64,000 nt of DNA from Candidatus Omnitrophota bacterium (GCA_028716065.1 JAQUQN010000002.1:6485-70484), one strand, 5' to 3'; positions 5,384 through 37,294 are shown, counted from the stretch's first letter. Made by a program: numbers and translations. Notes: generated by a model not told the origin, from the sequence alone.

Positions 5384-5404
5384 AGAGATTTGTGAAATAA
5401 AAAA

Positions 5405-12566: not shown

Positions 12567-13280
12567 ATGCCTGAGAAGGAAAATAAAGGCGCTTCTTACG
12601 CCAGGCAACTGGAAGCGATCTCGAAGGTCAGCAAGACCATCACATCCGGACTATATCTGGAAGAGATCCTGAAACTCATCGTAACCGTGACGGCGGAGAT
12701 AATGAACTCAAAGATATGTTCACTGATGCTGTTAGATGAGAAGAGCAACATGCTCGTGCTCAAGGCAACGCAGTCGATGAGCGAGGTCTATAATAAGAAG
12801 TCCCCCTTGAAGGTAGGCGAGGGCATTGCGGGCAAGGTCGCGCAACAGAACAGCCCTATGGCAATATATGATATAGCCAAGGAGGCGGAATATAAAAATA
12901 AGGACATAGCAAAAAAAGAAGGATTAAAATCCCTTCTATCCGTCCCTCTGGCAGTAAAGGGCAGGGTAATAGGCGTACTCAATAATTACACTTCTCACCC
13001 TCACAAGTTCATTAAAAGCGAAGTCGAACTTCTGACCACGGTAGCAAACCAGGCTGCCATAGTGATAGAAAACGCGGCGCTGATGCTAAAAGCGAAGGTC
13101 ATGCAGGACGAACTTGAGACCAGAAAAACGGTCGAAAGGGCCAAGGGGGTACTGATGCGCACCCAGGGCCTTTCCGAAGAGGAGGCGTTCAGAAAGATAC
13201 AGAAACAGAGCATGGACATGAGAAAAACGATGCGCGAGATTGCCGAGGCCATCCTGCTTCTCGAGAAGATGAAATCCTGA
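12567..13280 (+). CDS. GAF-ANTAR RNA-binding antiterminator-type regulator (paralog 1)
   Basis: GAF-like N-terminal two-thirds (GEGIAGKV...VPLAVKGRVIGVLN). C-terminal ANTAR signature (ERAKGVLMRTQGLSEEEAFRKIQKQSMDMRKTMREIAEAI). Confidence 0.85.
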   Translation: MPEKENKGASYARQLEAISKVSKTITSGLYLEEILKLIVTVTAEIMNSKICSLMLLDEKSNMLVLKATQSMSEVYNKKSPLKVGEGIAGKVAQQNSPMAIYDIAKEAEYKNKDIAKKEGLKSLLSVPLAVKGRVIGVLNNYTSHPHKFIKSEVELLTTVANQAAIVIENAALMLKAKVMQDELETRKTVERAKGVLMRTQGLSEEEAFRKIQKQSMDMRKTMREIAEAILLLEKMKS

Positions 13281-13343: not shown

Positions 13344-13361
13344 TATTATGAAGAGACAAGG

Positions 13362-13398
13362 ATGTCTTTCGGCAAAGTATGCTGAAAGACATTTTTTA
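13362..13398 (+). terminator. nadE leader terminator 1
   Basis: 13-bp stem ATGTCTTTCGGCA / TGCTGAAAGACAT (one G.U), loop AAGTA, then TTTTTT. Confidence 0.75.
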
Positions 13399-13408
13399 TA
13401 GACTAGGG

Positions 13409-13448
13409 CGTCTAGATCCGATATTGCGGATATAGGCGTTTTTTGTTT
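13409..13448 (+). terminator. nadE leader terminator 2
   Basis: CGTCTA-g-ATCCG-atattg-CGGAT-a-TAGGCG (11 bp, one G.U), then TTTTTTGTTT. Ends 12 nt before the nadE ATG. Confidence 0.55.
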
Positions 13449-15187: not shown

Positions 15188-15231
15188 AGCCCTTTATGCG
15201 CAAAGTAGGCGTGTAAAGGGCTTTAGTTTTT
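15188..15231 (+). terminator. nadE 3' terminator
   Basis: AGCCCTTTA / TAAAGGGCT, 9 bp, 17-nt loop, tail TTAGTTTTT. Confidence 0.65.
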
Positions 15232-15789: not shown

Positions 15790-15814
15790 GCATTTTTTAC
15801 TTGTAGAATCGTAG
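15774..15814 (+). promoter_or_regulatory. Conserved 41-nt box, copy 1 (upstream of porin-amtB-glnK)
   Basis: AGGTTACCAaAaTtAgGCATTTTTTACTTGTAgAaTcGTAG. 34/41 identical to 18917-18957. Contains a TAnAnT -10-like hexamer. Overlaps the sigma-factor stop codon. Confidence 0.6.
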
Positions 15815-15849
15815 CCTTGGCAACAAAGGCTAAAGACACATAGAAGTGT
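15812..15849 (+). promoter_or_regulatory. Tandem leader hairpins (amtB operon leader)
   Basis: TAGCCTT-GGCAACA-AAGGCTA and, 3 nt later, ACAC-ATAGAA-GTGT. The second has a hexaloop with A at position 1 and G at position 4, as in ANTAR target loops. Confidence 0.45.
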
Positions 15850-15859
15850 AAAAATGACG

Positions 15860-15896
15860 AAGGCGTTTGGAAGATAAAACGCCTTTTATTTTTTTC
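15860..15896 (+). terminator. amtB-operon leader terminator a
   Basis: AAGGCGTTT-ggaagata-AAACGCCTT then TTATTTTTTT. The 5' arm carries ACGAAGGCGTT. Confidence 0.75.
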
Positions 15897-15908
15897 ATAG
15901 TGGACAGG

Positions 15909-15956
15909 GACGTCTATTCTAATCCGAGGAGGAAAGGAGAGGCGTCTTTTGTTTTT
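15909..15956 (+). terminator. amtB-operon leader terminator b (weaker)
   Basis: GACGTCT / AGGCGTC (7 bp, one G.U), 24-nt loop, tail TTTTGTTTTT. Confidence 0.4.
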
Positions 15957-15975
15957 ATATTAAAGGAGATTTTTA

Positions 15976-17292
15976 ATGAGTCTTAATACAAAAAACATAC
16001 TTAGCGGTCTTGTGGTGTCTCTCTTTATAATCATCAGTTCCTCTACGGCGGTATTTGCGAATGAGATAGAGGAGCTAAGAAATGAGATAAAGATGATGAA
16101 GGAGAAGCTTAGCGCCATGGAGGCGAGATTGCAGCAATCCGAGGCAAGGGCCGCAGACGCCGAAAAACCAAAAACTGGACCGGAAGGGACTATTACGGAC
16201 GCCATCACCTCGATTACTAAGGAGATAGAGTTTCATGGTTTTGTAGACACTTCCTATATATTCAATACGAATACGCCTGTACCTCCCAACCCCAGGACTA
16301 ACAACCTCCGGGTATTCGATACGGACGCCAATGGATTCATGCTCAACATGGCACAATTGAGCTTTGAAAAGACCGTATCGAAAGAATCACCCCTGGGCTT
16401 CAGGGTAGACCTGGATTTCGGCCAGGACGCAAAACTCATACACTCAAACGGCCTTGGCAATCCCGGAGACGAATTCGACCTTGAGCAGGCATATGCACAG
16501 TTCTGCATCCCATTCAGCCTTCCTTTAATGGATACGTTGAGTTTCAAGTTCGGCAAATTCGTCACGTTAATGGGCGCGGAAGTCATTGAATCCGTCAATA
16601 ACTGGAATTTTTCCAGGTCGTACCTTTTCGGTTACGCGATACCGTTCACGCATACGGGCTTGAGGGCCTATTATAAACCCTTCGCGGACATACCGGTCGA
16701 ATCGTACATCGGCATAGTCAATGGATGGGATCAGGTGGACGACCTTAACCGGGCCAAGACGCTGGAAGCCCAGATAGCCGTAACACCTAACGATAAGCTA
16801 TCGTTTTCGTTGGGAGGCATGTTCGGTCCGGAGAGGGCGGATTCCAATAAGGATTTCCGGGACCTTATAGATTTCGTCATAACCTACCAGCCTCTTGATA
16901 AGTTGACTTTAAAAGCCAACTATGACTACGGGTGGGAGAGGAATGGCACGTCGGCCTTCGCCGGCTATACAGACGGCAAGGACGCATCCTGGGATGGTGT
17001 TGCCGGTTACGCCAAATATGATATTTTCGACTGGTGGTCGATCGCCGGCCGCGGTGAATTTTTCCATGACAGGAACGGCGTAAGGACAGGCGTCCTTACA
17101 AGTTCTACGATGCCCATCTCCGACCTGGCTGTCTGGGAATTCACACTTACCAATGAATTCAAGATATTTAAAAATTTCATAGCGAGATTTGAATATAGGT
17201 TCGACAAGGCAAGCGGTCAGGCCTTCACGAAAAACAAGACTACCGCTAATAATCAAAGCACTATAGCTGCTGAAGTAATAACCAAGTTTTAA
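15976..17292 (+). CDS. Outer-membrane beta-barrel porin with N-terminal coiled coil
   Basis: Signal peptide, heptad-like segment, alternating beta-strand pattern and a C-terminal Phe. Sits first in the operon with amtB-glnK. Confidence 0.6.
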   Translation: MSLNTKNILSGLVVSLFIIISSSTAVFANEIEELRNEIKMMKEKLSAMEARLQQSEARAADAEKPKTGPEGTITDAITSITKEIEFHGFVDTSYIFNTNTPVPPNPRTNNLRVFDTDANGFMLNMAQLSFEKTVSKESPLGFRVDLDFGQDAKLIHSNGLGNPGDEFDLEQAYAQFCIPFSLPLMDTLSFKFGKFVTLMGAEVIESVNNWNFSRSYLFGYAIPFTHTGLRAYYKPFADIPVESYIGIVNGWDQVDDLNRAKTLEAQIAVTPNDKLSFSLGGMFGPERADSNKDFRDLIDFVITYQPLDKLTLKANYDYGWERNGTSAFAGYTDGKDASWDGVAGYAKYDIFDWWSIAGRGEFFHDRNGVRTGVLTSSTMPISDLAVWEFTLTNEFKIFKNFIARFEYRFDKASGQAFTKNKTTANNQSTIAAEVITKF

Positions 17293-17314
17293 TATAAGGA
17301 AGGAGGAAAATGCG

Positions 17315-18550
17315 ATGATCAATTCCGGAGATACTGCGTGGATATTGATTTCGACGGCGCTCGTCATGATGATGACTGCGCCGGGTTTAGCGTTCTTTTA
17401 CGGTGGGCTGGTGCGGAGGAAAAACGTCCTCGCCACCATGATGCAGTCTTTCTTCGTACTGTGCCTGATCAGCATCCAGTGGATCTTGTGGGGCTATAGT
17501 CTTGCCTTTGGTCCCGATAAGGGCCATTTCATAGGTAGTCTCGCGTGGTTCGGTCTGAAAGGAGTGGGGATGGCGCCAAATCCTGATTACGCCGCGACCA
17601 TTCCGCATCTATTATTTATGGCATATCAGATGATGTTCGCAGTGATCACGCCCGCCCTGATAACAGGGGCTTTTGCTGAAAGAATGAAATTCTCCGCATA
17701 CGTCGTCTTTACCTTATTATGGGCAACTTTCGTATATGACCCCGTCTGCCATTGGGTATGGGGTACAGGCGGATGGTTAAAAGAGATGGGGGCCCTGGAC
17801 TTCGCAGGCGGCACAGTGGTCCATGTCTCATCAGGCATAGCTGCCCTCGTATGCGCGCTCGTATTAGGAAAACGGCGAGGATATGGCAATGAACCGATGC
17901 CTCCTCATAACTTGCCATTAACCGTCCTTGGGGCCGCGCTATTGTGGTTCGGATGGTTCGGATTTAATGCTGGTAGCGCATTAGGGGCCAACGAATTAGC
18001 CGTGACGGCTTTCATCGCTACAAATACGGCGGCTGCTGCGGCGGCACTTACATGGATGGCCATTGAATGGAACACTATCGGAAAGCCTACCATACTTGGC
18101 GGGGCTACGGGCGCTGTGGCGGGGCTTGTCGCAATAACGCCTGCCGCCGGCTTCGTCTCTCCGATATCCGCCATCTTCATAGGGATCATAGTAGGCCTGG
18201 TATGCTATACAGCTGTCGCCATCATTAAATTAAAACTTTCTTATGATGACAGTCTCGATGCTTTTGGCGTTCATGGTGTCGGCGGAGCAGTGGGTGCCCT
18301 GGTAACTGGGCTTTTCGCGCAGAAGATAATAAATCCCGGAGGGAGCAACGGGCTATTTTTCGGCAACCCTTCACAGCTAGCCACTCAAGCCATCGGTGTC
18401 ATAGCCACCATGGCATATTCGATCGCCGTAACATTCATCTTACTCAAAGTCCTTGATGCGGTCATGGGGCTGCGTGTTTCCGAAGAAGACGAGGTGGCCG
18501 GACTCGACATAACGCAACACGAGGAAAGCGCCTATACATTGTTAGACTAG
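17315..18550 (+). CDS. amtB: Ammonium transporter
   Basis: 411 aa polytopic protein with Amt signatures (DFAGGTVVHVSSG, FGVHGVGG). Confidence 0.95.
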   Translation: MINSGDTAWILISTALVMMMTAPGLAFFYGGLVRRKNVLATMMQSFFVLCLISIQWILWGYSLAFGPDKGHFIGSLAWFGLKGVGMAPNPDYAATIPHLLFMAYQMMFAVITPALITGAFAERMKFSAYVVFTLLWATFVYDPVCHWVWGTGGWLKEMGALDFAGGTVVHVSSGIAALVCALVLGKRRGYGNEPMPPHNLPLTVLGAALLWFGWFGFNAGSALGANELAVTAFIATNTAAAAAALTWMAIEWNTIGKPTILGGATGAVAGLVAITPAAGFVSPISAIFIGIIVGLVCYTAVAIIKLKLSYDDSLDAFGVHGVGGAVGALVTGLFAQKIINPGGSNGLFFGNPSQLATQAIGVIATMAYSIAVTFILLKVLDAVMGLRVSEEDEVAGLDITQHEESAYTLLD

Positions 18551-18562
18551 GAGGAGGTAGAA

Positions 18563-18904
18563 ATGAAACTGATAATCTCTATAATACAGCCGCATAGGCT
18601 TGAAAAGGTGCTGGAAGAATTGAACAAATCGGGAATCAGCCTGAGGACCGTATCCAACGTCCTGGGTTGCGGCAGGCAGAAAGGCCACACCGAGGTATAT
18701 CGCGGGAGGAAAGAGACGGGTAACCTTCTTAAAAAGGTACGCCTCGAAATTGCCGTCAATGAAGATTTCGTGGAACCTACGGTCAGGGCCATCATAAAAG
18801 GGGCAAAGACCGGAGAGATCGGAGACGGGAAGATATTTATAGCCGATCTGGCCGAATGCATAAGGATACGGACCGGGGAGAGGGGCGGCGAGGCGATAGG
18901 GTAA
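18563..18904 (+). CDS. glnK: P-II nitrogen regulatory protein
   Basis: 113 aa with T-loop [12 protein letters not shown] (Tyr51 retained) and DGKIFI. Directly downstream of amtB. Confidence 0.9.
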
Positions 18905-18916
18905 ACTTTAAAAAAT

Positions 18917-18957
18917 AGGTTACCAGAGTAACGCATTTTTTACTTGTATAGTTGTAG
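18917..18957 (+). promoter_or_regulatory. Conserved 41-nt box, copy 2 (upstream of glnA)
   Basis: AGGTTACCAgAgTaAcGCATTTTTTACTTGTAtAgTtGTAG, starting 13 nt after the glnK stop. Confidence 0.6.
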
Positions 18958-18967
18958 GGTATTAATA

Positions 18968-18983
18968 GGCACGCAGTAGTGCC
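18968..18983 (+). promoter_or_regulatory. Leader hairpin GGCAC-GCAGTA-GTGCC (glnA leader)
   Basis: 5-bp GC-rich stem with a hexaloop. Preceded by TA (TAGGCA word). Confidence 0.5.
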
Positions 18984-19010
18984 CCAAAAATAGGCAAACT
19001 TAAAGAACAG

Positions 19011-19066
19011 AGGCGTTCATTTTGGTCAGCGAGTGATTTGACCGAGTGAGCGCCTTTTTATCTTTT
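19011..19066 (+). terminator. glnA leader terminator
   Basis: 16-bp stem AGGCGTTCATTTTGGTC / GACCGAGTGAGCGCCT (three G.U, one bulge), then TTTTTATCTTTT. Ends 28 nt before the glnA ATG. Confidence 0.7.
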
Positions 19067-19094
19067 ATGCCCCACCACTAAAGGAGGAGTAAAC

Positions 19095-20603
19095 ATGAAA
19101 AAGAAGAAAGAGAAAAAACTAACAGACGTGAGGACAAAGAACCCGCTCATAAACGGCTCTTTCGATGAAAAGGCCGCCCGGGAAGTGATGAAGATGATCA
19201 AGGAGAAGAAGATACAGATCCTTGATCTTAAATTCAATGACCTGCCGGGCCTGTGGCAGCATTTCTCCATACCCGCATCGGAGCTTACGGAGATGGATGA
19301 CCTGACACGCTCTATCTGGGTGGACGGCATAGGGTTCGACGGCTCATCCATACGCGGCTTCCAGAAGATCCAGGAGTCGGACATGATCCTGATCCCTGAC
19401 CCTGCGACAGCCGTAATAGACCCTGTTTGCGAAGTGCCGACATTAAGCGTCATATGCGATATCTATGACCCGCTTACCAGAAAAGCATATACCCGAGACC
19501 CTAGATATATCGCGAAAAAGGCGGAAAAGTACCTGAAGGCATCCGGTATTGCCGACAATGTATACTTCGGGCCGGAGGCTGAGTTCTTTCTCTTCAATGA
19601 CGTCCGCTTTGACCAGACGGAAAACTCGGGATACTATTTTATAGACTCAGTCGAGGCTGACTGGAATACTGGAAAATCCGAAAATCCTAACCTGGGCTAT
19701 AAGATACGGTTCAAGGAAGGATATTTCCCAGTACCTCCGCACGACTCGCTACAGGACCTTCGCAGTAAGATGATCCTAAAGATGATAGAGGCCGGGATCC
19801 CCGTTGAAGTGCACCACCACGAAGTGGCCACAGCAGGACAATGCGAAATCGATATGAAGTTCGACACGTTGACAAAGATGGGCGATAACCTTTTGCTTTA
19901 CAAATATATCATAAAGAACATGGCCAGGAAGAACAACATGGTGGCCACGTTCATGCCCAAGCCGCTCTTTGCGGATAACGGCTCAGGCATGCACTGCCAC
20001 CAGAGCCTGTGGAAAAACGGCGTAAACCTTTTTTACGACAAGAACGGATACGCGCTCCTGAGCCAGACGGCCAAATACTACATAGGGGGGCTTTTAAAAC
20101 ACGCCAAGAGCCTCATGGCGTTCTGCGCGCCGACGACAAATTCTTACAAACGCCTGGTGCCGGGATACGAAGCGCCCGTAAACCTTGTTTACTCTGCCCG
20201 CAACCGGTCAGCGGCGGTAAGGATACCGATGTATTCCGACAGCCCCAAATCGAAAAGGATAGAGTTCAGGCCGCCCGATCCGTCCTGCAACGCCTACATA
20301 GCGTTCAGCGCAATGTTGATGGCGGGCCTTGACGGGATACAGCATAAGATCGATCCCGGCGAACCCGCAGACCAGGATCTATTCGAATTGAATGAGGAAG
20401 AACTGGCGAAGATCCCAACCGTGCCGTCATCTCTGCGCAGGGCTATAGATGCCCTGGAAGAAGACCATGACTACCTTCTCAAGGGCGGCGTCTTCACAAA
20501 AGACGTTATCGATGTATGGCTCGAATATAAACGCAAAAGAGAAATAGACACGGTGAGGATGCGCCCGCATCCATACGAGTTTTATCTATATTTTGATATT
20601 TAA
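19095..20603 (+). CDS. glnA: Glutamine synthetase type I
   Basis: GSI motifs ([32 protein letters not shown]). The adenylylation-site Tyr is replaced (DLFEL). Strong RBS aaaggagg. Confidence 0.95.
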
Positions 20604-20615
20604 TTACGAATCGCG

Positions 20616-20658
20616 GTAGGCGGCGCGGATATTTTTTAACCGGGCCTGCCTATCTTTT
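20616..20658 (+). terminator. Probable glnA 3' terminator
   Basis: TAGGCGG / CCTGCCTA stem with inner CGG/CCG pairs, tail TCTTTT. Confidence 0.45.
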
Positions 20659-20668
20659 AGGCATTGAT

Positions 20669-20854
20669 ATGGATGACAACCTACCCATTTACAGAACGAT
20701 CATAGCGCAGGTTGAAAAACCGCTCATAGAGATGGCCCTGGAGAGAACGAGCGGCAATCAGATCAGGGCCGCCGAACTGTTAGGGATCAATCGTAATACG
20801 ATCCGCACCAAGATAAAAAAACTCGGCATCGACGTCAAGAGATGGAAGGTATGA
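20669..20854 (+). CDS. Stand-alone Fis/NtrC-C-terminal-type HTH protein (61 aa)
   Basis: [26 protein letters not shown] is an HTH_8-type motif. Its stop overlaps the gltB start (ATGA). Confidence 0.65.
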
Positions 20855-23800
20855 ACAAAATGAGACACAACCACTTGCCCGAAAGACAGGGCCTCTATGA
20901 TCCGCGCTTCGAGCATGACTCATGCGGCGTCGGGTTCGTCTGTAATATAGACGGAGTGCGGTCGCACGATGCCGTTCAAAAAGGCCTTGAAGTGCTGAAA
21001 CGGCTCTCGCATCGCGGAGCGACCGGTTCGGACCCGAAAACCGGAGACGGCGCAGGCATACTACTGCAGATCCCGCATGAGTTCCTGCTCAAGGCCTGCG
21101 GGGAAGAAGGTATGGAATTACCGGACGAGGGGAGCTATGGCACCGGCATCGTTTTCCTGCCGACCGATGAGAGAGAAAGAAGGTTCTGCAAGGCCGCCTT
21201 CGCGAAAATAGCTAAGGAGGAGGGACAGGCTCTTTTAGGATGGCGCAAAGTCCCGGTAGACGATTCGGATATAGGCAGAATCGCGAGGGAGACCGAGCCG
21301 GTGATAGAACAAGTCTTCATCGCTAAAAATAGAAGGCTGAAGGATAGGCTGGCTTTCGAACGCAGACTGTATGTTATCAGAAAAGGGGTCGAGAATCTCA
21401 TAAGAACGACCGGCTTAAGGCAGAAGGCCTTCTTCTATATCACCAATATATCCAATCGTACCATGTCGTATAAAGGGCTTCTCATGCCCTATCAATTAGA
21501 AAAATTCTTCATCGATCTAAAAGATAATTCGCTAAAAAGCTCTTTATGCCTTGTTCATTCCCGGTACAGCACGAATACTTTCCCGACATGGGATCTGTCA
21601 CAGCCGTTCAGGTTCCTTGCGCATAATGGCGAGATAAACACATTGCGGGGGAACATAAATTGGATGAGGGCCAGGGAAAAATTACTGAAGAGTAATCTAT
21701 TCGGGCAGGAGATCAAAAATATCATGCCTGTAATCGTTCCGAACGGAAGCGATTCGGCGGCCATAGACAACGTGCTTGAACTTCTGGCACTATCGGGCAG
21801 GTCGCTACCCCATGCCATGGCAATGCTCATACCTTCAGCGTGGGAAGGCGATGGCCTGATGGATGATGAACTTAGAGACTTTTACAGATACCACGCCTGC
21901 ATGATGGAGCCATGGGACGGGCCTGCGGCTATCGCCTTTACGGATGGCACGAGGATAGGGGCAGTGCTGGACAGGAACGGGTTGAGGCCCGCACGCTACA
22001 TGATAACTAAAGGCGGGCTTGTAGTTATGGCATCCGAAGTGGGGGTTCTCGACATAAGACCGGAGGATATATCGGTATCGGGCAGGCTGGAACCCGGTAA
22101 GACGTTCTACATCGATACGGAACTAAAACGTGTGATCGACGATGTGGAGATCAAGAGATCTCTTTCCATGGCACAGCCTTACGGCGACTGGATTAAAAAG
22201 AAGCTGGTCTCTCTCAATGATCTGCCGGAGAGAGGCAATGAACCAAAGCATCCCGAAGATGTCATTACATCCTTAAAGGCGTTTGGTTACACGCGCGAAG
22301 ACCTCAAGACCATACTTAAACCGATGGCGGAGAAAGGTGCGGAACCGATCGGCTCCATGGGAAACGATACGCCCCATGCCGTCCTATCGGCCATGCCTCA
22401 GATACTCTTCAACTACTTCAAACAATTATTCGCCCAGGTAACAAACCCTGCCATAGATCCGATAAGGGAAGAGCTGGTAATGAGCCTGACGGCACTTGTC
22501 GGGCCCGAAAAAGGACTGCTCGATGAGACACCGGAACACTGTCACAAACTCGAGGTGGCCCGTCCCATTCTCTCGGACGGCGAGTTATCAAAAATACGCG
22601 ATATCGCTATAAACGGGTTCAGGACCAAAACCATATCCATATTATTCGACCCTCTTCGAGAAAAAAGTTTCATCGATACGATAGACCACATATGTGAAGA
22701 GTCATCCAGGGCCATAAACGAGGGTTATTCATTCATTATTTTAAGCGATAGGGGCGCGGATATTTCCAAGGCCGCTCTTCCGAGCCTTTTGGCAGTAGGC
22801 GCCGTGCATCATCACCTCGTCAGAAAATCTTCGAGAACCCAGATAGGCATAATCCTCGAGAGCGCCGAACCCAGAGAGGTTCACCATTTTGCGCTCCTTT
22901 TCGGCTATGGGGCGGACTGCATAAACCCTTACCTCGCGTATGAGGCCCTCGGCTATCTGGTAAGAGAAAAAGAACTGGAGATGGATTACGAGAAGGCTCT
23001 CGAAAATTACAGAAAGGCCCTGGAGAGCGGCATATTGAAGGTGCTCTCAAAGATGGGCATATCGACATTGCAGAGCTACCGCGGCGCTCAGATATTTGAG
23101 GCGCTCGGATTGAGCGATGCCCTCATAGAAAAATGTTTTACAGGCACCGTTTCCAGAATAGGCGGTATAGGCTTCGACACAATAGCGAAGGAGTATATCG
23201 CCAGGCACTCTCAAGTCTATCCTGTAAGCGCGGCGTCCCAACCATACCTGCCTACCGGAGGCGTATACCAGTGGAAGAGAGACGGAGAGATCCACCTCTG
23301 GAACCCTGACTCCATAGCTGCGTTGCAGGATGCCGCCAGGACCAACGATAATAAAAAGTACTCGGAATTCGCTGGATTGATAAACGACCAATCGAAAGGC
23401 CCCTGCACGTTGCGAGGGCTCTTAAAATTCAGAAAAGCCAGGCCCATCCCGATAGAGGAGGTGGAGCCCTCGAAAGAGATCGTAAAAAGATTCGCGACCG
23501 GCGCCATGAGTTTCGGTTCCATAAGCAAGAGCGCTCACGAAGCCATAGCCATAGCCATGAACATGCTCGGAGGCAGGTCAAACACCGGGGAAGGCGGAGA
23601 GGATCCGGCGCGATTCAATCCATTGCCGAACGGTGATTCTGCGAGAAGCGCCATAAAGCAGGTCGCTTCCGGCAGGTTCGGCGTTACCACCAATTATCTC
23701 GTCAATGCGGATGAACTGCAGATAAAGATAGCCCAGGGGGCAAAACCCGGAGAAGGCGGGCAGCTGCCCGGCCACAAAGTGAGCGCCATCATAGCGCGGA

Positions 23801-25389
23801 CCAGGTATACCACGCAAGGCGTCACCCTCATATCGCCGCCTCCGCACCACGACATATATTCCATCGAGGACCTTGCGCAGCTCATATTTGACCTGAAGAA
23901 CGTCAATCCTAAAGCCCGAATAAGCGTTAAGCTTGTATCGGAGATAGGGGTGGGCACGGTCGCCGCGGGTGTCGCCAAAGGTCATGCCGACATGATACTG
24001 ATCTCGGGCGGAGACGGGGGAACCGGCGCATCGCCTCTCAGTTCCATAAAACACGCGGGCCTCCCGTGGGAACTCGGCCTTTCGGAGACACATCAAACTC
24101 TGGTCCTGAACGACCTGCGCAGCAGGGTCAGGCTGCAGACGGACGGACAGATGCGCACGGGCCGCGACATCGCCATCGCCGCCTTGCTGGGAGCGGAAGA
24201 GTTTGGCTTCTCTACCGCGGTACTGATAGTCCTCGGATGTGTGATGTTGAGGCATTGCCACCTGAATAATTGTTCCGTGGGAGTCGCCACGCAGGACGCC
24301 ATCCTGCAGAATAGGTTCAGGGGAAGGCCTGAATATATAATCAACTACTTCTATTTCGTCGCGCAAGAACTGAGAGAGATAATGGCCGGGCTGGGTATTC
24401 GCCGCGTTGACGACATGATCGGCAGGACGGATCTATTGCTGGTCGATAAGACGGCCTTGACCTGGAAGACCAAAGGGCTGGATTTTTCAAGAATGCTGTA
24501 CAAGGCCGGAACGAAGAGGCCGGACACCAGATACCATGTTATGCCTCAGAAGCCTGCAATGCACGGGGAATTGGATTCAGAACTCATCAAACTCTCAAAA
24601 GATGCGATAGGCAATAGAGCACCTGTAAAACTCTCCATGGGCATAAAAAATAGCAATAGGACTGCCGGCGCCATGTTGAGCGGAGAGGTGTGCAGGGTAC
24701 ATGGGGAAGGCGGCCTGCCTGATGATACCGTATACTGCAAATTCAAGGGTGTAGCCGGCCAGAGCTTCGGCGCCTTTCTCTCCAAAGGAATAACATTTGA
24801 ACTCGAAGGCATGGCGAACGATTATGTGGGCAAGGGTATCTCCGGCGGGAAGATCATAATATATCCGGACAGGAGAGCGGGTTATGACGCCAGCAGGGGC
24901 ATCATCATCGGAAATACGACATTTTACGGCGCCATAAGCGGTGAGGCATATATAAGGGGGACCGCGGGAGAAAGGTTTTGCATAAGGAATTCGGGGCTGA
25001 ATGCCGTCGTAGAAGGCACCGGTGACCATGGATGCGAATACATGACCGGAGGAAGGGTTGTCATTCTGGGAAAAACTGGAAGGAACTTTGCCGCTGGGAT
25101 GTCTGGCGGCATCGCGTATGTTTACGATCCGAAGAGAGATTTTAAAGATAGGTGCAACATGGAGATGGTAACCCTGGAAAGCATAAATTCCGACGATGAG
25201 ATGACGATCGGCGAGCTGCTATCCAACCACCACAGGTTCACCGGCAGTACATTGGCCAGAGAGATACTGGACGACCTTAAATCCAGGTTAAAGAGCTTTA
25301 TCAAGGTCATGCCGATAGAATACAAGCGTATCCTGGAAAGCAAAGAGCTAGAGGAAGATTTGAATCTCGTAGAGGTGTCAGATGGGTGA
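20851..25389 (+). CDS. gltB: Glutamate synthase large subunit
   Basis: About 1510 aa. N-terminal Ntn Cys (HDSCGVGF), FMN domain and C-terminal GXGXG domain. Start set at the ATG of the ATGA overlap. Confidence 0.95.
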
Positions 25390-26827
25390 TCCGAGAGGAT
25401 TTTTGAAAGTAAAGCGGGAAGGCTCTCCATATAGACCCGTATGTGAACGCGTTAAGGATTACAAAGAAGTATCGGCGCCGAGAGACGACGAACGTTCCAA
25501 GGAACAGTCTTCGCGTTGCATGGATTGCGGAACGCCCTTCTGCCACTGGGCCTGCCCGGTCGGTAATTATATCCCGGAATGGAACGACGCGATGTTCCAC
25601 GGCCACTGGAAAAAGGCCATAGACCTACTGCATGCGACGAACAATTTTCCGGAGATAACGGGGCGGTTGTGCCCGGCGATGTGCGAATACGCCTGCGTAT
25701 TGGGTATAAACGACGACCCTGTTACGGTAAGAGAGAACGAACTGGCCATCATAGAGCATGGGTTTAGACAGGGCATCATAAAGGCGTCTGGGCCCGCGAA
25801 GCGCAGCGGAAAACGTATCGCCATAATAGGCTCGGGCCCTGCAGGGCTGGCCTGCGCCGACCAATTAAATAAAGCGGGACACGAGGTGACGGTCTATGAA
25901 AAAGACGACAGGGCCGGAGGAATATTACGATACGGCATACCGGACTTTAAACTGGAAAAATGGGTCCTGGACAGGCGGCTCGATATTTTAAAAAAAGAAG
26001 GCGTAAAACTCATAACCTCGGTCAATGTTGGAACCGATATCACCATTTCCGAACTGCGGAAAGGTTTTGACGCCGTCTGCCTGGCCGGAGGCAGCCGCGT
26101 TCCGAGAGACCTGAAGATCGAAGGAAGGGAATTGAAAGGTATACATTTCGCCATGGACTTCCTGGTGCAGGCGAACAGGATGGTAGCTGGAGAAAAGATA
26201 CTGGAAGATAAATTCATAGACGCTAAGGGCAAAAGGATAGTCGTAATAGGCGGAGGCGATACGGGATCTGACTGCGTCGGTGTATCGCACCGTCACGGCG
26301 CAAGCTGCGTAGTCCAGATCGAACTGTTACCTCAGCCGTCAGAATCCCGCACCGGGGAATATAACTGGCCGAAATATCCGCTTCTCCTCAAGAGATCCTC
26401 CAGCCATGAAGAAGGGGGCGAGCGCAACTGGTCGATACTCACGAAGCGGCTTATCGGAGTAGACGGACGCGTGAAAAGATTGTCCTGCGTCCGCGTCAGT
26501 TTTGACCAAAAAGACGAGCGAGGCCGTCCGCTCATGAGGGAACTACCCGGAAGCGAGTTCGAGATAGAGGCCGATCTGGTAATATTGGCTATGGGTTTTG
26601 TACACCCGGAGCACGACATCCTGCTCGATGCGCTCGGCGTAAAACTGGATCCGTACGGAAATGTGGCCACGGATGACAAGTACATGACTTCGGCCAAAGG
26701 CGTATTCTCGGCCGGCGACATGAGAAGGGGGCAATCCCTGATCGTCTGGGCCATATCGGAAGGCCGCCGCTCAGCCCACGCCATCGATAAATACCTTATG
26801 GGTTCAAGCAACCTGCCGGTAGTCTAA
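25382..26827 (+). CDS. gltD: Glutamate synthase small subunit (NADPH)
   Basis: Cys clusters (CMDCGTPFC, CPAMCEYAC) and the dinucleotide fold IAIIGSGPAGLACA. Confidence 0.95.
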   Translation: MGDPRGFLKVKREGSPYRPVCERVKDYKEVSAPRDDERSKEQSSRCMDCGTPFCHWACPVGNYIPEWNDAMFHGHWKKAIDLLHATNNFPEITGRLCPAMCEYACVLGINDDPVTVRENELAIIEHGFRQGIIKASGPAKRSGKRIAIIGSGPAGLACADQLNKAGHEVTVYEKDDRAGGILRYGIPDFKLEKWVLDRRLDILKKEGVKLITSVNVGTDITISELRKGFDAVCLAGGSRVPRDLKIEGRELKGIHFAMDFLVQANRMVAGEKILEDKFIDAKGKRIVVIGGGDTGSDCVGVSHRHGASCVVQIELLPQPSESRTGEYNWPKYPLLLKRSSSHEEGGERNWSILTKRLIGVDGRVKRLSCVRVSFDQKDERGRPLMRELPGSEFEIEADLVILAMGFVHPEHDILLDALGVKLDPYGNVATDDKYMTSAKGVFSAGDMRRGQSLIVWAISEGRRSAHAIDKYLMGSSNLPVV

Positions 26828-26852
26828 TCCCCCTTAAAACCTCCATTATTAT

Positions 26853-26881
26853 TTGCCAATATTCCAAAAGATTAGTATAAT
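26853..26881 (+). promoter_or_regulatory. Sigma70-type promoter (TTGCCA-N17-TATAAT)
   Basis: The -10 ends 10 nt before ATG 26892, so the transcript would be leaderless or nearly so. Confidence 0.5.
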
Positions 26882-26891
26882 AAAACCTGTC

Positions 26892-27773
26892 ATGATATCC
26901 TTATTAAAATTTAAGGACTGGATATTGAAATTCTTCTTAGAAGAGAACCCATCCGCCAGGGCGGCAGGTGAGCCGATAAAAGATGGCCTATCCGACAAAT
27001 TAAAAATAAGCGAAACGGAGGCGCGCATATTAAACTCGCTCATATCCGTCCTATTCAGCCCAACATTGTCTATGGGGTACACCCATCCGTTCAGAGAGAT
27101 AGATACCCGGTCTCTCGATAAACTCAAATCCTCCGGTTGTTATTCTTATATAGAAAATTTCGCCGCGAATTTCGGGCCCGGCTATTCCGAAGATGATATC
27201 TCCAAACTGCGTAAACTGGTTTCGGCTAAAGGCGCAGATCTTACAGACGAGCAGATCGGCGATCTGATCGCCCTCGAAAAGAGAAATCATCAATACAGCG
27301 ATTTCCGGAGGATCTTTTCGTCACATAATCCGCGTTCCGTAAAAGATACGATAAAGCTATTCTCGGCTGCCTTCTCTAAAGAGATCGGCTCACTGGAGAC
27401 CTATGGCGAGAGGGTCAGGCGTTTCGGCCTGCGCAAGGTCGTCATCTACAAAAAGGGGAGGAGTTTCCGGGCGGCGTTTGAGAGACTCGACAGATACGAG
27501 CTGGGCGGAGGCGAAGACCTCGGGTCGCTTCATATCGCAGACGACGAGGGAAGATACTATAACAGCATGGACAAGGTATATGACGAGATAAAGGAGATGG
27601 TCTGCCGGCTGTCATTTCTCAAGCGCCTGATATCCGAGTCAAAGATAGACTCAAAAGAGGCCCCGGCCAGGCGGCCAAACGATAATGAGCTGATCAAATT
27701 GATCATATCCTCGAGAAAAGAATCGGAAATGGAGGATTTCGAAAAAAGCCTTAAAAACGGAGGAAAGTTATGA
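26892..27773 (+). CDS. Hypothetical protein
   Basis: Long ORF with no recognisable motif. The ATG at 26892 lies 11 nt after a TTGCCA-N17-TATAAT promoter. ATGA overlap with the next gene. Confidence 0.5.
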   Translation: MISLLKFKDWILKFFLEENPSARAAGEPIKDGLSDKLKISETEARILNSLISVLFSPTLSMGYTHPFREIDTRSLDKLKSSGCYSYIENFAANFGPGYSEDDISKLRKLVSAKGADLTDEQIGDLIALEKRNHQYSDFRRIFSSHNPRSVKDTIKLFSAAFSKEIGSLETYGERVRRFGLRKVVIYKKGRSFRAAFERLDRYELGGGEDLGSLHIADDEGRYYNSMDKVYDEIKEMVCRLSFLKRLISESKIDSKEAPARRPNDNELIKLIISSRKESEMEDFEKSLKNGGKL

Positions 27774-28246
27774 GCGTATTCAATGCGGCCGAGATAATAG
27801 ACATGGGCATAGAAAAGGAAAAGAAGCGAAGGGACTTCTACGGGCTAGTAGCTGAAAAATTCACGGAAAAAGAGATGAAGGATCTCTTCACCCGCTTAAG
27901 AGATTGGGAAGATGAGCACATCAAAAAATTCAGCGAGATAAGACAGGGCGTTGAAGAGGACGATACCCATGAAACATATCCCGGGGAACTGGCGGATTAC
28001 ATGAAAGTACTGGTGGAGGACAGGCTCTATAAAGAGGCCTCGCCGTCCGAATTCGCCAAAAATGTAAAGACACCCATCGTGGCCATTCAATACGGAATGG
28101 CATTCGAAAGGGACGCGATATTGTTCTTCAGCGAGCTTCTGCCGGCCATGGGCCGGACCAACAGGGATTCCGTACAGAAGTTGATAGATGAAGAGAAGCA
28201 GCACTTGATCTATCTTTCCAAGTTAAAACAAAAATTCCAATCCTGA
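27770..28246 (+). CDS. Rubrerythrin/ferritin-like diiron-fold protein
   Basis: Four-helix pattern with paired E...ExxH motifs (WEDEHIKKF, DEEKQHLIYL). Confidence 0.6.
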   Translation: MSVFNAAEIIDMGIEKEKKRRDFYGLVAEKFTEKEMKDLFTRLRDWEDEHIKKFSEIRQGVEEDDTHETYPGELADYMKVLVEDRLYKEASPSEFAKNVKTPIVAIQYGMAFERDAILFFSELLPAMGRTNRDSVQKLIDEEKQHLIYLSKLKQKFQS

Positions 28247-28250
28247 CAGC

Positions 28251-29078
28251 ATGAAAATAAAACGGTTGGTTTTAATGCGCCAAATATCACAGACCGTTTT
28301 TTTCTTTTTATTTATCTACATCATCTGGTCGGCCACTTACCAATTAAAAGGGCCTCTGTCTCCCAGGTTAATTTTTGACGCCGATCCTCTCCTGACATTA
28401 TCCGCATCCATAGGCAGCCGCGTGATCATCCCCGGCATCTCATTGTCCCTCATCATCTTATTTATGACAGCTGTCCTCGGAAGATTCTTCTGCGGCTGGA
28501 TATGCCCCCTGGGTTCGACCATGGACCTGATCGCATCCTTTAAAAAAAGAAAGGCCGGTATTCCAGATTCGAAGAATAAAAAATTGAGAAGGCCGAAATT
28601 TTACATATTCGGCCTGATAGGCCTGTCGGCCGTGATGGGTACTCAGATAGCATGGTTGCTTGACCCGCTGGTGATCACAGAGCGTTTCCTGTCACTGACC
28701 ATCAGGTCCGCCTGCTCTTTACTGGGGAAGGGGGCTAATTTCTCGCCATACTCCATCATAACGCTTATATTCTTCGCGGTTATTTGCTCAATGGCGATAT
28801 TCTTAAGCCGTTTCTGGTGCCGGGCCATCTGCCCGTTAGGAGCGTTATATGCGGTCATGGCGCGTTTTTCCATATTAAGGCGTATTGTGGTGGAATGCAA
28901 GGATTGCGGCAACTGTAAAAGTTCGTGCAGGATGGGTGCTATAAAGGATGACGCCAGTTATGTAAAGTCAGAATGCATCCTTTGCATGGACTGTATCTAT
29001 GACTGCTCTTCCAACTCGACCAGCTTCGGCTGGGGCGATAAAAAGACCCGCAATTTTCTACTTGACAAAACACACTAA
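28251..29078 (+). CDS. Polytopic 4Fe-4S binding membrane protein (NapH/MauN-like)
   Basis: Repeated CxxxCP(L)G motifs (FCGWICPLG, FWCRAICPLG) plus two ferredoxin motifs (CKDCGNCKSSC, CILCMDCIYDC). Confidence 0.7.
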   Translation: MKIKRLVLMRQISQTVFFFLFIYIIWSATYQLKGPLSPRLIFDADPLLTLSASIGSRVIIPGISLSLIILFMTAVLGRFFCGWICPLGSTMDLIASFKKRKAGIPDSKNKKLRRPKFYIFGLIGLSAVMGTQIAWLLDPLVITERFLSLTIRSACSLLGKGANFSPYSIITLIFFAVICSMAIFLSRFWCRAICPLGALYAVMARFSILRRIVVECKDCGNCKSSCRMGAIKDDASYVKSECILCMDCIYDCSSNSTSFGWGDKKTRNFLLDKTH

Positions 29079-29090
29079 TGTTGCTATATT
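29062..29090 (+). promoter_or_regulatory. Sigma70-type promoter (TTGACA-N17-TATATT) for nfnAB-gdhA leader
   Basis: The -35 lies inside the 3' end of the upstream CDS. Followed by a leader terminator. Confidence 0.6.
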
Positions 29091-29119
29091 ATATCATCAA
29101 TATTATGTTAAAAGGGGAC

Positions 29120-29159
29120 AAAGACGTCCGCTAAAAAAAGCGGCGTCTTTTTTTATTTT
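29120..29159 (+). terminator. nfnAB-gdhA leader terminator
   Basis: AAAGACG-t-CCGC-taaaaaaa-GCGG-CGTCTTT (11 bp, one bulge), then TTTTATTTT. About 25 nt after the promoter -10. Confidence 0.75.
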
Positions 29160-29199
29160 CCAATGCATAAAAAATAGGCAACTGCCATTTCTTTAAAAA

Positions 29200-30026
29200 A
29201 TGAAGATACTGAAAAAAGAGATACTTGCCGATCACGAAGGGACGAGGCTGGTTAGGATGGAGCTCCACTCCCCGCTAATTGCCAAAAAGGCGTCAGCGGG
29301 CCAATTTGTCGTCCTCATGGCCGATGAGAAAGGCGAGAGGATACCTCTTACCATAGTTGAGGCCGACAGGGAAAAGGGGTCCATAGCCATCATCTTCCAG
29401 GAGGTGGGCCATACTACAAAACTCCTGGGAAAGATGGAAGCGGGCAAATCGCTATATTCCTTAACGGGGCCCCTGGGACATGCGACAGAGATAAGGAAAT
29501 TCGGGAAGGTTATCCTCGTGGGAGGAGGGGTCGGCATAGCAGAGATTTACCCCGTGGCAAGGGCCTTAAAAGCAAGCGGCAACCGTGTCGTGACCATACT
29601 CGGCGCCAGGACAAAAGCGTTATTAATACTGGAAAAAGAGCTCAAAGAGACATCCGATGAAATCTACATAACTACCGATGACGGATCTTACGGGTTAAAG
29701 GGTTTCACGACATCGGTACTGGAGGGCCTCCTCTCTAAAGGAAATTACGATCTCGTCTATTCAGTAGGTCCTATTCCAATGATGAAGAACTCTTCTTCAG
29801 TGACCAGGCGTTTTAATGTCAGGACGCTCGTCTCGCTGAATGCCCTGATGGTGGACGCAACGGGCATGTGCGGGTGCTGCAGGGTCGCAGTCGGGGGTAA
29901 GGTAAAGTTCAGCTGCGTTGACGGGCCGGAATTTGACGCGCACCAGGTCGACTGGGAGGAACTGGATAAGAGAAACAGGGTATACACGGACAAAGAAAAA
30001 CATATCTGCAAACTGAATAATTTAAA

Positions 30027-30030
<4 letters not shown>
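29200..30030 (+). CDS. nfnA: NfnA / SudB-type ferredoxin-NADP+ oxidoreductase subunit alpha (FAD, 2Fe-2S)
   Basis: PyrK-like fold with DATGMCGCCRV...FSCVDGPEF. Overlaps the nfnB start by 4 nt. Confidence 0.8.
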
Positions 30031-32800
<2,770 letters not shown>

Positions 32801-32823
32801 CGGAGGGCGGTAAAAAATAATAC

Positions 32824-32852
32824 TTGACAAAATAGACAAATCGTGGTATAAA
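32824..32852 (+). promoter_or_regulatory. Sigma70-type promoter (TTGACA-N17-TATAAA, TGn) for GAF-ANTAR-2 leader
   Basis: Lies 24 nt after the gdhA stop. Followed by three terminators. Confidence 0.6.
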
Positions 32853-32869
32853 TAGTTGATTAAAAATTA

Positions 32870-32886
32870 GGCACAAAGTCAGTGCC
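32870..32886 (+). promoter_or_regulatory. Leader hairpin GGCAC-AAAGTCA-GTGCC (GAF-ANTAR-2 leader)
   Basis: Same stem as 18968-18983 and a related loop (AGT-A). Preceded by TTA (TAGGCA word). Confidence 0.5.
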
Positions 32887-32902
32887 ATAATGAGAAAGGA
32901 CG

Positions 32903-32933
32903 AAGGCGTTCGAAAGAACGCCTTTCTCTTTTT
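32903..32933 (+). terminator. GAF-ANTAR-2 leader terminator 1 (may also end the gdhA transcript)
   Basis: AAGGCGTTC-GAAA-GAACGCCTT then TCTCTTTTT. The 5' arm carries ACGAAGGCGTT. Confidence 0.65.
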
Positions 32934-32973
32934 AGACAACCTTTCTCTTTCAACGCGGAAAACCTGGATAAAG

Positions 32974-33018
32974 ACGTCCGATCTGGCAGTATCATAATGC
33001 CGGAGAGGGCGTTTTTTT
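32974..33018 (+). terminator. GAF-ANTAR-2 leader terminator 2
   Basis: ACGTCCGATCTGGC / GCCGGAGAGGGCGT (12 pairs including two G.U, tandem G-A internal loop), then TTTTTTT. The 5' arm carries AAAGACGTCCG. Confidence 0.7.
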
Positions 33019-33025
33019 ATGAACG

Positions 33026-33070
33026 AAGGCGTTCTGTGCCGATAAACGGCGCATTGCGCCTTATTTTTTT
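33026..33070 (+). terminator. GAF-ANTAR-2 leader terminator 3
   Basis: Outer AAGGCG/CGCCTT plus inner TGTGCCG-ataaa-CGGCGCA, then TTATTTTTTT. The 5' arm carries ACGAAGGCGTT. Ends 10 nt before ATG 33081. Confidence 0.7.
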
Positions 33071-33080: not shown

Positions 33081-33776
33081 ATGTCATACGAAGAACAGAT
33101 AAAGGCATTATCACGGATAAGCAGGGCCATAGCATCCGATCAATACCTGGAAGATATCCTACGCCTCATAGTCACGGTAACCGCGGAGATGATGGGTTCG
33201 AACATATGTTCGCTCATGCTGCTGGATGAGAACAGGAATGAGCTCATCATAAGGGCGACTCAAAGCGTAAGCGATGCATACAATAAAAAACCACCAGTAA
33301 AAATAGGCGAAGGCATAGCAGGCAAGGTATTCAAGGAGAAGGTGCCGGTAAAGGTCCTTGACGTGCGCAAAGATAAAAATTACATAAGCAGGAGCATAGC
33401 GAAGAAAGAAGGGCTGTGCTCGCTCCTGTGTGTACCCCTGATAGTCAAGAATAAGGCCATAGGGGTCCTAAATTGCTACACATCGAAACCCCGCGATTTC
33501 AGCGAGACGGAGACGAATATCCTGGCGACCATCGCCAATCAGGCGGCGGTAGCCATAGAGAATACGGAATTGATGGTCAGGAGCAAGGTCATACAGGAAG
33601 AGCTGGAGGTACGTAAGAAGATAGAACGCGCCAAGGGCATCATAATGAAGAGGGAGGGATTGAAAGAGGAAGAGGCCTATTTAAAACTCAGGAAATACAG
33701 TATGGATAGCCGTAAGACGATGCGCGAAATAGCGGATGCCATCATTCTTACGGAGGATTTAAGCAAGAAATTATAA
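33081..33776 (+). CDS. GAF-ANTAR RNA-binding antiterminator-type regulator (paralog 2)
   Basis: Roughly 55% identical by eye to 12567-13280. ANTAR signature ERAKGIIMKREGLKEEEAYLKLRKYSMDSRKTMREIADAI. Start at ATG 33081, downstream of the leader terminators. Confidence 0.85.
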   Translation: MSYEEQIKALSRISRAIASDQYLEDILRLIVTVTAEMMGSNICSLMLLDENRNELIIRATQSVSDAYNKKPPVKIGEGIAGKVFKEKVPVKVLDVRKDKNYISRSIAKKEGLCSLLCVPLIVKNKAIGVLNCYTSKPRDFSETETNILATIANQAAVAIENTELMVRSKVIQEELEVRKKIERAKGIIMKREGLKEEEAYLKLRKYSMDSRKTMREIADAIILTEDLSKKL

Positions 33777-35584: not shown

Positions 35585-35619
35585 GTTCGAGTAGCTCAGA
35601 GCGGATCTACTATAAAAAC

Positions 35620-37294
<1,675 letters not shown>

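Follow-up and report, generated by a model that had tools for sequence, protein, structure and literature searches.

Candidate ANTAR antiterminator hairpins overlapping leader terminators in a nitrogen-assimilation gene cluster from a Candidatus Omnitrophota bacterium

The ANTAR target described by Ramesh et al. in 2012 consists of two small stem-loops, P1 and P2, with hexanucleotide loops carrying A at position 1 (A1) and G at position 4 (G4), P2 overlapping a terminator (PMC3369931). For EutV, the two closing pairs of P1, A-U and C-G, are sequence-specific, and the eut sites of Enterococcus faecalis were first spotted as a common 13-mer, AGCAANGRRGCUY, in the 5' part of four terminators (PMC3369931). 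ANTAR sites were predicted mostly before nitrogen genes, i.e. those for P-II, ammonium transporters and the synthesis of glutamine, glutamate and arginine, and one organism, Desulfotomaculum acetoxidans, had as many as 13 of them spread over six transcription units (PMC3369931). Walshe et al. reported in 2022 that G4 is the sole base-specific contact and redefined the minimal site as a single hexaloop (PMC8934654). The GAF-ANTAR subclass was called uncharacterised in 2012 (PMC3369931) and in literature of 2020, and a full-text literature search for "GAF-ANTAR" returned nothing newer than 2020. Here we analyse 64,000 nucleotides (nt) of DNA from a Candidatus Omnitrophota bacterium (GCA_028716065.1, JAQUQN010000002.1:6485-70484), a stretch referred to as the window, in which short sequence words recur at the leader terminators of a nitrogen-assimilation cluster. 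We propose, at a probability of roughly 85%, that these words are part of ANTAR antiterminator hairpins run by GAF-ANTAR proteins, which would block the leader terminators.

The initial annotation of the window had placed two recurring words on the 5' arms of leader terminators, and a window search returned exact matches at every position it had given. Word 1, ACGAAGGCGTT, occurs in exact copies at 15857, 32900 and 33023, all on the plus strand, and word 2, AAAGACGTCCG, at 29120 and 32970; the variants ACAGAGGCGTT at 19007 and GGGACGTCT at 15907 are likewise present in the sequence. All word sites are intergenic and lie within leaders, where each marks the beginning of a terminator hairpin's 5' arm, with a T-run behind the hairpin. 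With up to one mismatch allowed, word 1 has 6 matches in the window against 0.92 expected, a number reached by none of 100 shuffles, and the count of word 2 alone is not significant (3 matches at up to one mismatch, with 12 of 100 shuffles reaching 3). Coding sequence does not carry the words at a comparable rate: within the window they are confined to leaders, and in 80 related loci, described below, the pattern ACRRAGGCGTT occurs 22 times in non-coding sense orientation versus 2 coding-sense and 2 antisense occurrences, with 89% of the sequence being coding. The observation is real and non-random, and it withstood the refutation test set in the initial annotation.

Together with 2-4 upstream bases, each word folds into a small hairpin whose loop has six bases, in which the word makes up the loop and the 3' strand, and the same bases open the 5' arm of the terminator. 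The two words, although real as sequences, are not two separate signals but variants of one motif, a hairpin of 4 base-pairs (bp) with the consensus xxAC-RANGRC-GUxx (loop R-A-N-G-R-C). Nine units and a weaker tenth (pyrG) were found in the window, located in the leaders of nadE, porin-amtB-glnK, glnA, nfnAB-gdh and ANTAR-2, the gene of the second of two GAF-ANTAR proteins, and probably of pyrG-carAB. The units at 13354 and 13400 (nadE leader) and the weaker one at 35616 (pyrG leader) were absent from the initial annotation. The features are as follows, where model matches refer to the covariance model R1 that is described with the related loci.

12567..13280, plus strand: GAF-ANTAR protein 1 (ANTAR-1), 237 amino acids (aa); Pfam ANTAR 78.4 bits, GAF_2 77.2 bits; nadE attenuators directly downstream
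13354..13367, plus strand: nadE leader hairpin a, AGAC-AAGGAU-GUCU; no P1 possible, as the -10 box ends 10 nt upstream
13358..13396, plus strand: nadE leader terminator a, then T-run; -21.1 kcal/mol, z -6.1; 10 of 14 hairpin bases used
13400..13413, plus strand: nadE leader hairpin b, AGAC-UAGGGC-GUCU, from sequence and fold
13405..13441, plus strand: nadE leader terminator b, then T-run; -23.2 kcal/mol, z -5.5
15836..15849, plus strand: porin-amtB-glnK leader P1, ACAC-AUAGAA-GUGU, read from sequence and folded; model match 15836-15868
15856..15867, plus strand: amtB leader P2a, GAC-GAAGGC-GUU; contains word 1 at 15857-15867
15859..15886, plus strand: amtB leader terminator a, from fold
15902..15915, plus strand: amtB leader P2b, GGAC-AGGGAC-GUCU; corresponds to the variant GGGACGTCT
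15903..15953, plus strand: amtB leader terminator b; -20.8 kcal/mol; 13 of 14 hairpin bases used
18968..18983, plus strand: glnA leader P1, GGCAC-GCAGUA-GUGCC; model match 18968-19018, 24 bits
19005..19018, plus strand: glnA leader P2, GAAC-AGAGGC-GUUC; corresponds to the variant ACAGAGGCGTT
19009..19057, plus strand: glnA leader terminator; -27 kcal/mol, z -4.9
29116..29129, plus strand: nfnA-nfnB-gdh leader hairpin, GGAC-AAAGAC-GUCC; word 2; no convincing P1
29120..29150, plus strand: nfnA leader terminator; -16.9 kcal/mol
32870..32886, plus strand: ANTAR-2 leader unit 1 P1, GGCAC-AAAGUCA-GUGCC, 7-nt loop; model match 32870-32911, 46.7 bits, E 1e-8
32898..32911, plus strand: ANTAR-2 leader unit 1 P2, GGAC-GAAGGC-GUUC; word 1
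32902..32925, plus strand: ANTAR-2 leader terminator T1; z -7.4
32948..32961, plus strand: ANTAR-2 leader unit 2 P1, UUUC-AACGCG-GAAA; orthologous UUUC-AAAGUCA-GAAA hairpins in related loci
32966..32979, plus strand: ANTAR-2 leader unit 2 P2, GGAU-AAAGAC-GUCC; word 2
32970..33016, plus strand: ANTAR-2 leader terminator T2; -25.3 kcal/mol
33021..33034, plus strand: ANTAR-2 leader unit 3 P2, GAAC-GAAGGC-GUUC; word 1
33026..33062, plus strand: ANTAR-2 leader terminator T3; -23.1 kcal/mol
33081..33776, plus strand: GAF-ANTAR protein 2 (ANTAR-2), 231 aa; Pfam ANTAR 71 bits, GAF_2 84.9 bits; apparently controlled by its own target type
35616..35629, plus strand: candidate hairpin in the pyrG-carA-carB leader, AAAC-AAUGGC-GUUU; model match 35590-35629, 17.2 bits, E 0.04
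35620-35661, plus strand: pyrG leader hairpin overlapping the candidate, with a weak U-tail; -30.5 kcal/mol; promoter 35557-35584

Each unit has a stem of 3-4 bp closed by A-U and C-G (at T2, G-U replaces A-U) and a 6-nt loop, and G is found at loop position 4 in all units of the window. Loop position 1 of the window P2 hairpins is G at the three exact word-1 sites (GAAGGC) and A at the others, except for UAGGGC at 13404. An upstream P1 hairpin is present in four units, at 15836, 18968, 32870 (7-nt loop) and 32948. Formation of P1 is impossible where a strong sigma-70 -10 box ends 10-15 nt before the hairpin, which is the case at 13354 in the window and in four orthologous leaders of the gdh/nfnA type (L010 4284, L039 1824, L052 9288 and L079 4033). 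The nfnA unit (29116) has 25 nt available upstream and no credible P1. Six-base loops, G4, closing A-U and C-G pairs, a P2 laid over the 5' part of the terminator and several units per regulon are features shared with the EutV targets of the E. faecalis eut genes, whose sites had also first come to notice as a word common to the 5' arms of terminators. In contrast to those, loop position 1 is A or G here, P1 often has a 7-nt loop, linkers vary in length, some units have no P1, and the consensus is AC-RANGRC-GU instead of GC-AANGRR-GC.

Folded in isolation, those P2 hairpins that were scored reached -1.1 to -4.0 kcal/mol (+0.4 kcal/mol for the pyrG candidate), and the terminators, which consume 7-13 of the 14 hairpin bases, scored -13 to -30 kcal/mol, the leader terminator hairpins having z-scores of -3.0 to -7.4 against shuffled controls. 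Since P2 is weak and the terminator strong, and since both draw on the same bases, the two folds are mutually exclusive and termination is expected to be the default. An unbiased terminator scan on both strands of the window detected an AC...GT hairpin with a six-base loop overlapping the 5' arm at 8 leader terminators, the GGAT/GTCC wobble variant at a ninth (T2) and one intragenic false positive (62690). In the same scan the hairpin was absent from the non-leader terminators at 5402, 7163, 42264(-), 45378, 7351(-) and 59953(-), and by inspection those at 15188 and 20611 likewise have none. A first scanner, which combined a regular expression with folding, was too strict and missed the hairpins at 15856, 29116 and 33021, which were recovered by the covariance model and direct folding.

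For comparison we used a set of 80 loci (L001-L080; one genome per species; 776 kb in total) that encode GAF-ANTAR proteins with 62-77% identity. The bins are labelled Omnitrophota, Aerophobetes, Auribacterota, Elusimicrobiota, Margulisbacteria, Clostridia, Planctomycetia and even Methanosarcinales; identities of 62-77% over such labels mean either that the protein is unusually conserved, or that it is horizontally mobile, or that many bins are mislabelled. Upstream of the ANTAR gene, the relatives show the layout GCAC-AARGUYA-GUGC, linker, GAAC-AAAGGC-GUUC, terminator, often followed by UUUC-AAAGUCA-GAAA / GGAU-AAAGAC-GUCC and then by a third unit. In ANTAR leaders the GGAU-AAAGAC-GUCC form keeps its position as second unit. 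Among the 76 loci with enough upstream sequence, 29 have one to three hairpin-plus-terminator units before the ANTAR gene. The scan by regular expression and folding returned 81 such units in sense and 7 in antisense orientation over the related loci. Among 20 non-ANTAR genes examined behind units of the relatives, which correspond to the gene set described for ANTAR regulons (PMC3369931), 18 belong to nitrogen assimilation or glutamine-dependent biosynthesis or encode a regulator also present in the window cluster (glnA twice, amtB, P-II, gdh six times, gltB, nadE, carB, nfnA-like, Glu_synthase-like three times and GerE/sigma-like); the other two are a gene without Pfam match and an unrelated antiporter subunit.

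The covariance model R1 was built from 18 dual-hairpin seeds with 7-nt P1 loops from the related loci only, so that window sites were not among the seeds; these 18 were chosen from 25 candidate dual hairpins, since a MAFFT alignment of all 25 misaligned P1 loops of 6 and 7 nt. Run on the window with filters off, R1 scored highest at unit 1 of the ANTAR-2 leader and in the glnA leader (46.7 and 24 bits), with lower-scoring matches at 29069, 33008, 35590, 15836, 15873, 13336 and 13371; nine of the 12 best window matches are sense-strand leaders. Over both strands of the 776 kb, all 48 matches at E<=0.1 lie on the sense strand. The R1 alignment has 97.6% of its cells paired and compensatory changes in 7 of its 9 pairs, values reached in 0 of 500 shuffles, and sliding the partner column as a control lowers pairing to 27-59%. 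The outer pairs covary, one stem position holds 15 G-U pairs, and the closing A-U and C-G pairs are invariant, though the seeds were chosen with them. P1 loops have A1 in 43 of 46 and G4 in 44 of 44 cases, and P2 loops have A in 38 and G in 9 cases at position 1 (47 of 47 being A or G) and G4 in 47 of 47, where in both loops the seeds had been selected for G4.

The cluster that holds the units begins with GAF-ANTAR-1, nadE (glutamine-dependent NAD synthase), a small sigma-70/ECF-like protein (extracytoplasmic function; 15241-15789), a BBP2 porin, amtB, P-II and glnA, and continues with a 61-aa open reading frame (ORF) of the Fis helix-turn-helix (HTH) type, gltB, gltD, nfnA-like, nfnB-like, gdh, GAF-ANTAR-2, a Glu_synthase-domain protein, pyrG, carA and carB. 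Both GAF-ANTAR proteins exceed the Pfam ANTAR and GAF cut-offs (for ANTAR-2, 71 bits against an ANTAR cut-off of 27.3); they are 58% identical to each other, and a protein named from a Candidatus Omnitrophica bin matches ANTAR-2 with 100% identity. The idea that the two words represent two specificities, one per paralogue, found no support when stem and loop variants were tabulated against the downstream gene: gdh leaders carry GTTC, GTCC and GTCT forms in different genomes, so that the words grade into each other as one motif.

No gaps are needed to align the ANTAR domain of ANTAR-2 with EutV (6wsh) 135-191, Rv1626c and NasR. Of the RNA contacts defined for EutV by Walshe et al. 2022 (PMC8934654), R142, K143, K149, E160, Y164, R168, M172 and R175 are identical in ANTAR-2, allowing for an offset of two residues in numbering, K147 is conservatively replaced by R, and N173 and R177 are altered to D and T, so that 9 of 11 are identical or conservative. 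The G4 contacts R142, K149 and E160 are kept, as are Y164 and M172; judged by this alignment, the G4 pocket of ANTAR-2 is intact. ANTAR-1, placed in the same register by inspection, has F in place of Y164 and Q in place of R168. The best NCBIfam matches of the GAF domain are PtsP (E 3e-20) and NifA (E 4e-16), covering the GAF region only and far below the full-length cut-offs, and its best matches in the PDB are the PtsP GAF domains 3ci6 and 3trc. NifA GAF domains bind 2-oxoglutarate. The GAF domain of PtsP binds glutamine (PMC4848567). With a GAF domain of the PtsP/NifA type, the signal read by the GAF-ANTAR proteins is therefore probably nitrogen status (glutamine and/or 2-oxoglutarate).

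Three further proteins of the cluster deserve mention. The 182-aa protein at 15241-15789, located directly upstream of the amtB promoter, has a full-length sigma-70/ECF match of 41.9 bits against a cut-off of 42.9, with further matches to Sigma70_r4 and GerE. In L032 a GerE-like counterpart of this protein is preceded by two hairpin-plus-terminator units. The 182-aa protein may serve promoters of the GGTTACC type as their factor, which would give a cascade from ANTAR to sigma. The 61-aa ORF at 20660-20845 consists of a Fis-family HTH_8 domain alone (61 bits), and its stop codon overlaps the gltB start codon. The protein of about 525 aa at 33801-35393, which follows ANTAR-2, has a partial Glu_synthase domain only and no NCBIfam match for the window copy; its relatives (L044 4277, L078 6815, L079 5785) have hairpin-plus-terminator units of their own, making it a conserved, unnamed regulon member.

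We propose a model in which the terminator would form by default and transcription would stop in the leader. An active GAF-ANTAR dimer would bind the six-base loop and keep P2 closed, probably after first docking on an upstream P1 of the same kind where P1 is present. With P2 held closed, the terminator could not nucleate and RNA polymerase would read into the operon. We infer binding itself, the acting paralogue, the ligand and the direction of the response. The predicted regulon would comprise nitrogen assimilation (porin-amtB-glnK, glnA, nfnAB-gdh) and the glutamine consumers nadE and, probably, pyrG-carAB, as well as the gene of the regulator ANTAR-2 itself, which would be placed behind three units in series. 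The initial annotation had suggested a trans-acting antiterminator that sequesters the 5' arm of the terminator; this reading is supported by the match to P2, by the two ANTAR genes and by a covarying, conserved element before nitrogen genes. The assumption that such a ligand is sequence-specific is supported as well, with the modification that a small six-base-loop hairpin, and not a linear 11-mer, would be recognised.

The system most likely belongs to known ANTAR attenuation and no new mechanism is needed. It resembles the predicted nitrogen regulons of D. acetoxidans, D. reducens and Pelobacter carbinolicus, which also have many attenuators per genome and the same gene set (PMC3369931), but it is found in different phyla and the window adds nadE, nfnAB-gdh, pyrG-carAB and the triple attenuation of the regulator's gene. 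For GnfK/GnfR from Geobacter sulfurreducens (Ueki and Lovley 2010, PMC2995071), an ANTAR regulator was likewise proposed to relieve the leader terminators of nitrogen genes, alongside control at the promoter level; GnfR is a two-component response regulator of nitrogen-fixation genes, whereas the present system has no kinase, no nif genes and a GAF sensor. EutV, too, is a phosphorylated REC-ANTAR protein, as opposed to the one-component GAF-ANTAR regulator here. NasR (NIT-ANTAR of Klebsiella, one-component) and AmiR (Pseudomonas, partner-controlled) are, in the same manner, ANTAR antiterminators that act on a hexaloop hairpin by the leader terminator of a nitrogen-related operon. However, NasR senses nitrate via NIT and AmiR depends on its partner AmiC, each for one operon; here, the sensor is a GAF domain resembling those of PtsP and NifA, and the regulon would cover no fewer than five, and probably six, transcription units. 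What is new are the regulon, the consensus (xxAC-RANGRC-GUxx) and a plausible signal for the GAF-ANTAR subclass, together with the apparent P1-less units.

Our results suggest that nitrogen assimilation and several glutamine-dependent enzymes of uncultured Omnitrophota and neighbouring phyla are under attenuation via a PtsP/NifA-like sensor. A wider claim can only be made tentatively, and we would give it somewhat less than an even chance: that the GAF-ANTAR proteins are direct one-component sensors of glutamine/2-oxoglutarate, and that global nitrogen control in Omnitrophota and allied uncultured phyla runs almost entirely by attenuation, including nadE, pyrG and carAB, P1-less sites at the 5' end and a triple autoattenuator. 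If true, the uncharacterised GAF-ANTAR class would gain its first regulon, signal and recognition rules.

Several points weigh against an ANTAR-operated switch at these leaders. At loop position 1, G takes the place of the canonical A in all three exact copies of word 1. P1 is missing from several units and could hardly be part of the transcript at 13354, although for EutV deletion of P1 abolished induction (PMC3369931). P1-P2 linkers span 4-21 nt, and EutV tolerates little change of linker length (PMC3369931). The P1 loop of unit 1 has 7 nt, as P1 loops often do, and some orthologous P2 loops have 8 nt; the pyrG unit combines a weak U-tail with a marginal score. No relevant Rfam family was found in the whole window at gathering thresholds or in 15000-36000 at E<=10, where only chance matches to a snoRNA and rimP appeared, in a library not established to hold an ANTAR family. 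In addition, G4 and AC/GU closing pairs were preconditions for both the R1 seeds and the scanner. Invariance at these positions is therefore partly built in, and only the covariation of the outer pairs, the strand bias, the window matches and the gene context are independent of seed choice. G1 loops, P1-less units, variable linkers and variable loops fit the single hexaloop as minimal site and differ from the genetics of EutV; the P1-less units are a natural test of whether one hexaloop suffices for ANTAR antitermination.

Taking these deviations into account, the same hairpin switch might be worked by a factor other than ANTAR, such as another RNA-binding protein, a small-molecule riboswitch or ribosome-mediated attenuation. 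The link between ANTAR proteins and sites is one of sequence, and both G1 in three window loops and the P1-less units depart from the EutV rules. We nevertheless regard such a factor as unlikely, given that known riboswitch aptamers are larger than a hairpin of 14 nt and no Rfam family was matched, that the motif obeys the ANTAR rules (G4, closing pairs, terminator overlap) with a single hexaloop as the redefined minimal site (PMC8934654), and that 29 of 76 related loci have the element before the very gene of the ANTAR protein, often two or three times. A non-ANTAR RNA-binding factor is not needed to operate the switch. It is still less probable, to a degree that we would call very slight, that a trans-acting small RNA (sRNA) or antisense RNA pairs with the linear word and thereby frees or blocks the terminator. 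Nothing speaks directly in favour of such an RNA. The words are single-stranded in neither of the alternative folds, no complementary candidate locus was seen in the window, where minus-strand matches are the terminators' own 3' arms only, and conservation follows the pattern of a stem-loop (covarying outer pairs, 15 G-U pairs at one position, a conserved loop) and not that of a linear complement. A protein of the type that binds such hairpins is, on the other hand, encoded twice in the window.

Leaders that were copied from each other, leaving the words as residual identity without function, have an equally slim chance of accounting for the data. T1 and T3, located 120 nt apart in one leader, do have a common 13-mer (AACGAAGGCGTTC / GACGAAGGCGTTC), as expected from a recent common origin, but at every site the identity ends at the hairpin, with flanks, terminator loops and 3' arms all differing. 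Moreover, the hairpin recurs in bins labelled as several phyla with compensatory stem changes and unrelated terminators, and it is absent from non-leader terminators. For both common origin and an sRNA, which the initial annotation had offered alongside a protein, the unrelated flanks and terminator loops, the G-U pairs and compensatory changes and the conservation across these bins leave no support. Finally, the words could be read as operators that a transcription factor binds on the DNA: the palindrome GACGTC is part of word 2, nearby genes encode an ECF-like sigma, a Fis-type HTH and a LuxR-type fold, and other DNA-like motifs (AAWTAGGCA and GGTTACCA, described below) recur in these promoters. 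We consider this the least probable explanation of all, since all 48 model matches lie on the transcribed strand, the stems make use of G-U pairs, which are meaningless in duplex DNA, and the sites, each of which overlaps a terminator, are located past the promoters within transcribed leaders.

Two further motifs were observed in the promoters and leaders of the cluster. AAWTAGGCA has 6 matches in the window versus 1.4 expected, at 15784, 18988, 29172 and 32865, which are in or beside four nitrogen leaders or promoters, and also at 38945 and 56031 (minus strand). In the relatives L011, L012, L014, L016, L017, L026 and L028 it takes the form of a near-palindrome, TGCCTAAAAATTAAGCA, about 30-65 nt before the ANTAR start, with a strand bias of 48 to 10; it could be an operator or an RNA element. 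The promoters of amtB (15775-15808) and glnA (18918-18955) have in common GGTTACCA, followed after about 8 nt by GCATTTTTTACTTGTA(G/T)A(A/G)T, an arrangement that replaces the TTGACA -35 box and also precedes the ANTAR genes in L011, L012 and L028. This layout suggests a dedicated activator or an alternative sigma factor upstream of the attenuators. A sigma-54 reading of the AGGCATTTTTTACTTGTA promoter region was rejected by eye, as its spacing misfits the GG-N10-GC rule.

Three observations concern other terminators and leaders of the window. Ahead of a second carA-carB pair (45467-49862), the region 45241-45466 provides a separate promoter and a leader with the hairpin GTGGCCAGGGGAGGTTTCGTCTCTCGTGGCCAT and a T-run behind it. 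This hairpin is not of the ANTAR type, in that it gave no R1 model match, and the CCAGGGGAGG core of the leader presumably resembles a PyrR-binding loop. The terminator behind nadE (15188-15222) has an apical loop, AAAGUAG, on a CGC/GCG stem, which is similar to the P1 loops AAAGUCA; its place is the tip of the terminator and not the arm, and the resemblance may be coincidence. A terminator hairpin of 30 nt, GGAACCCCACGGGCTTACGCCCGTGGTTCC, occurs twice on the minus strand, at 7351(-) and 59953(-), 52 kb apart.

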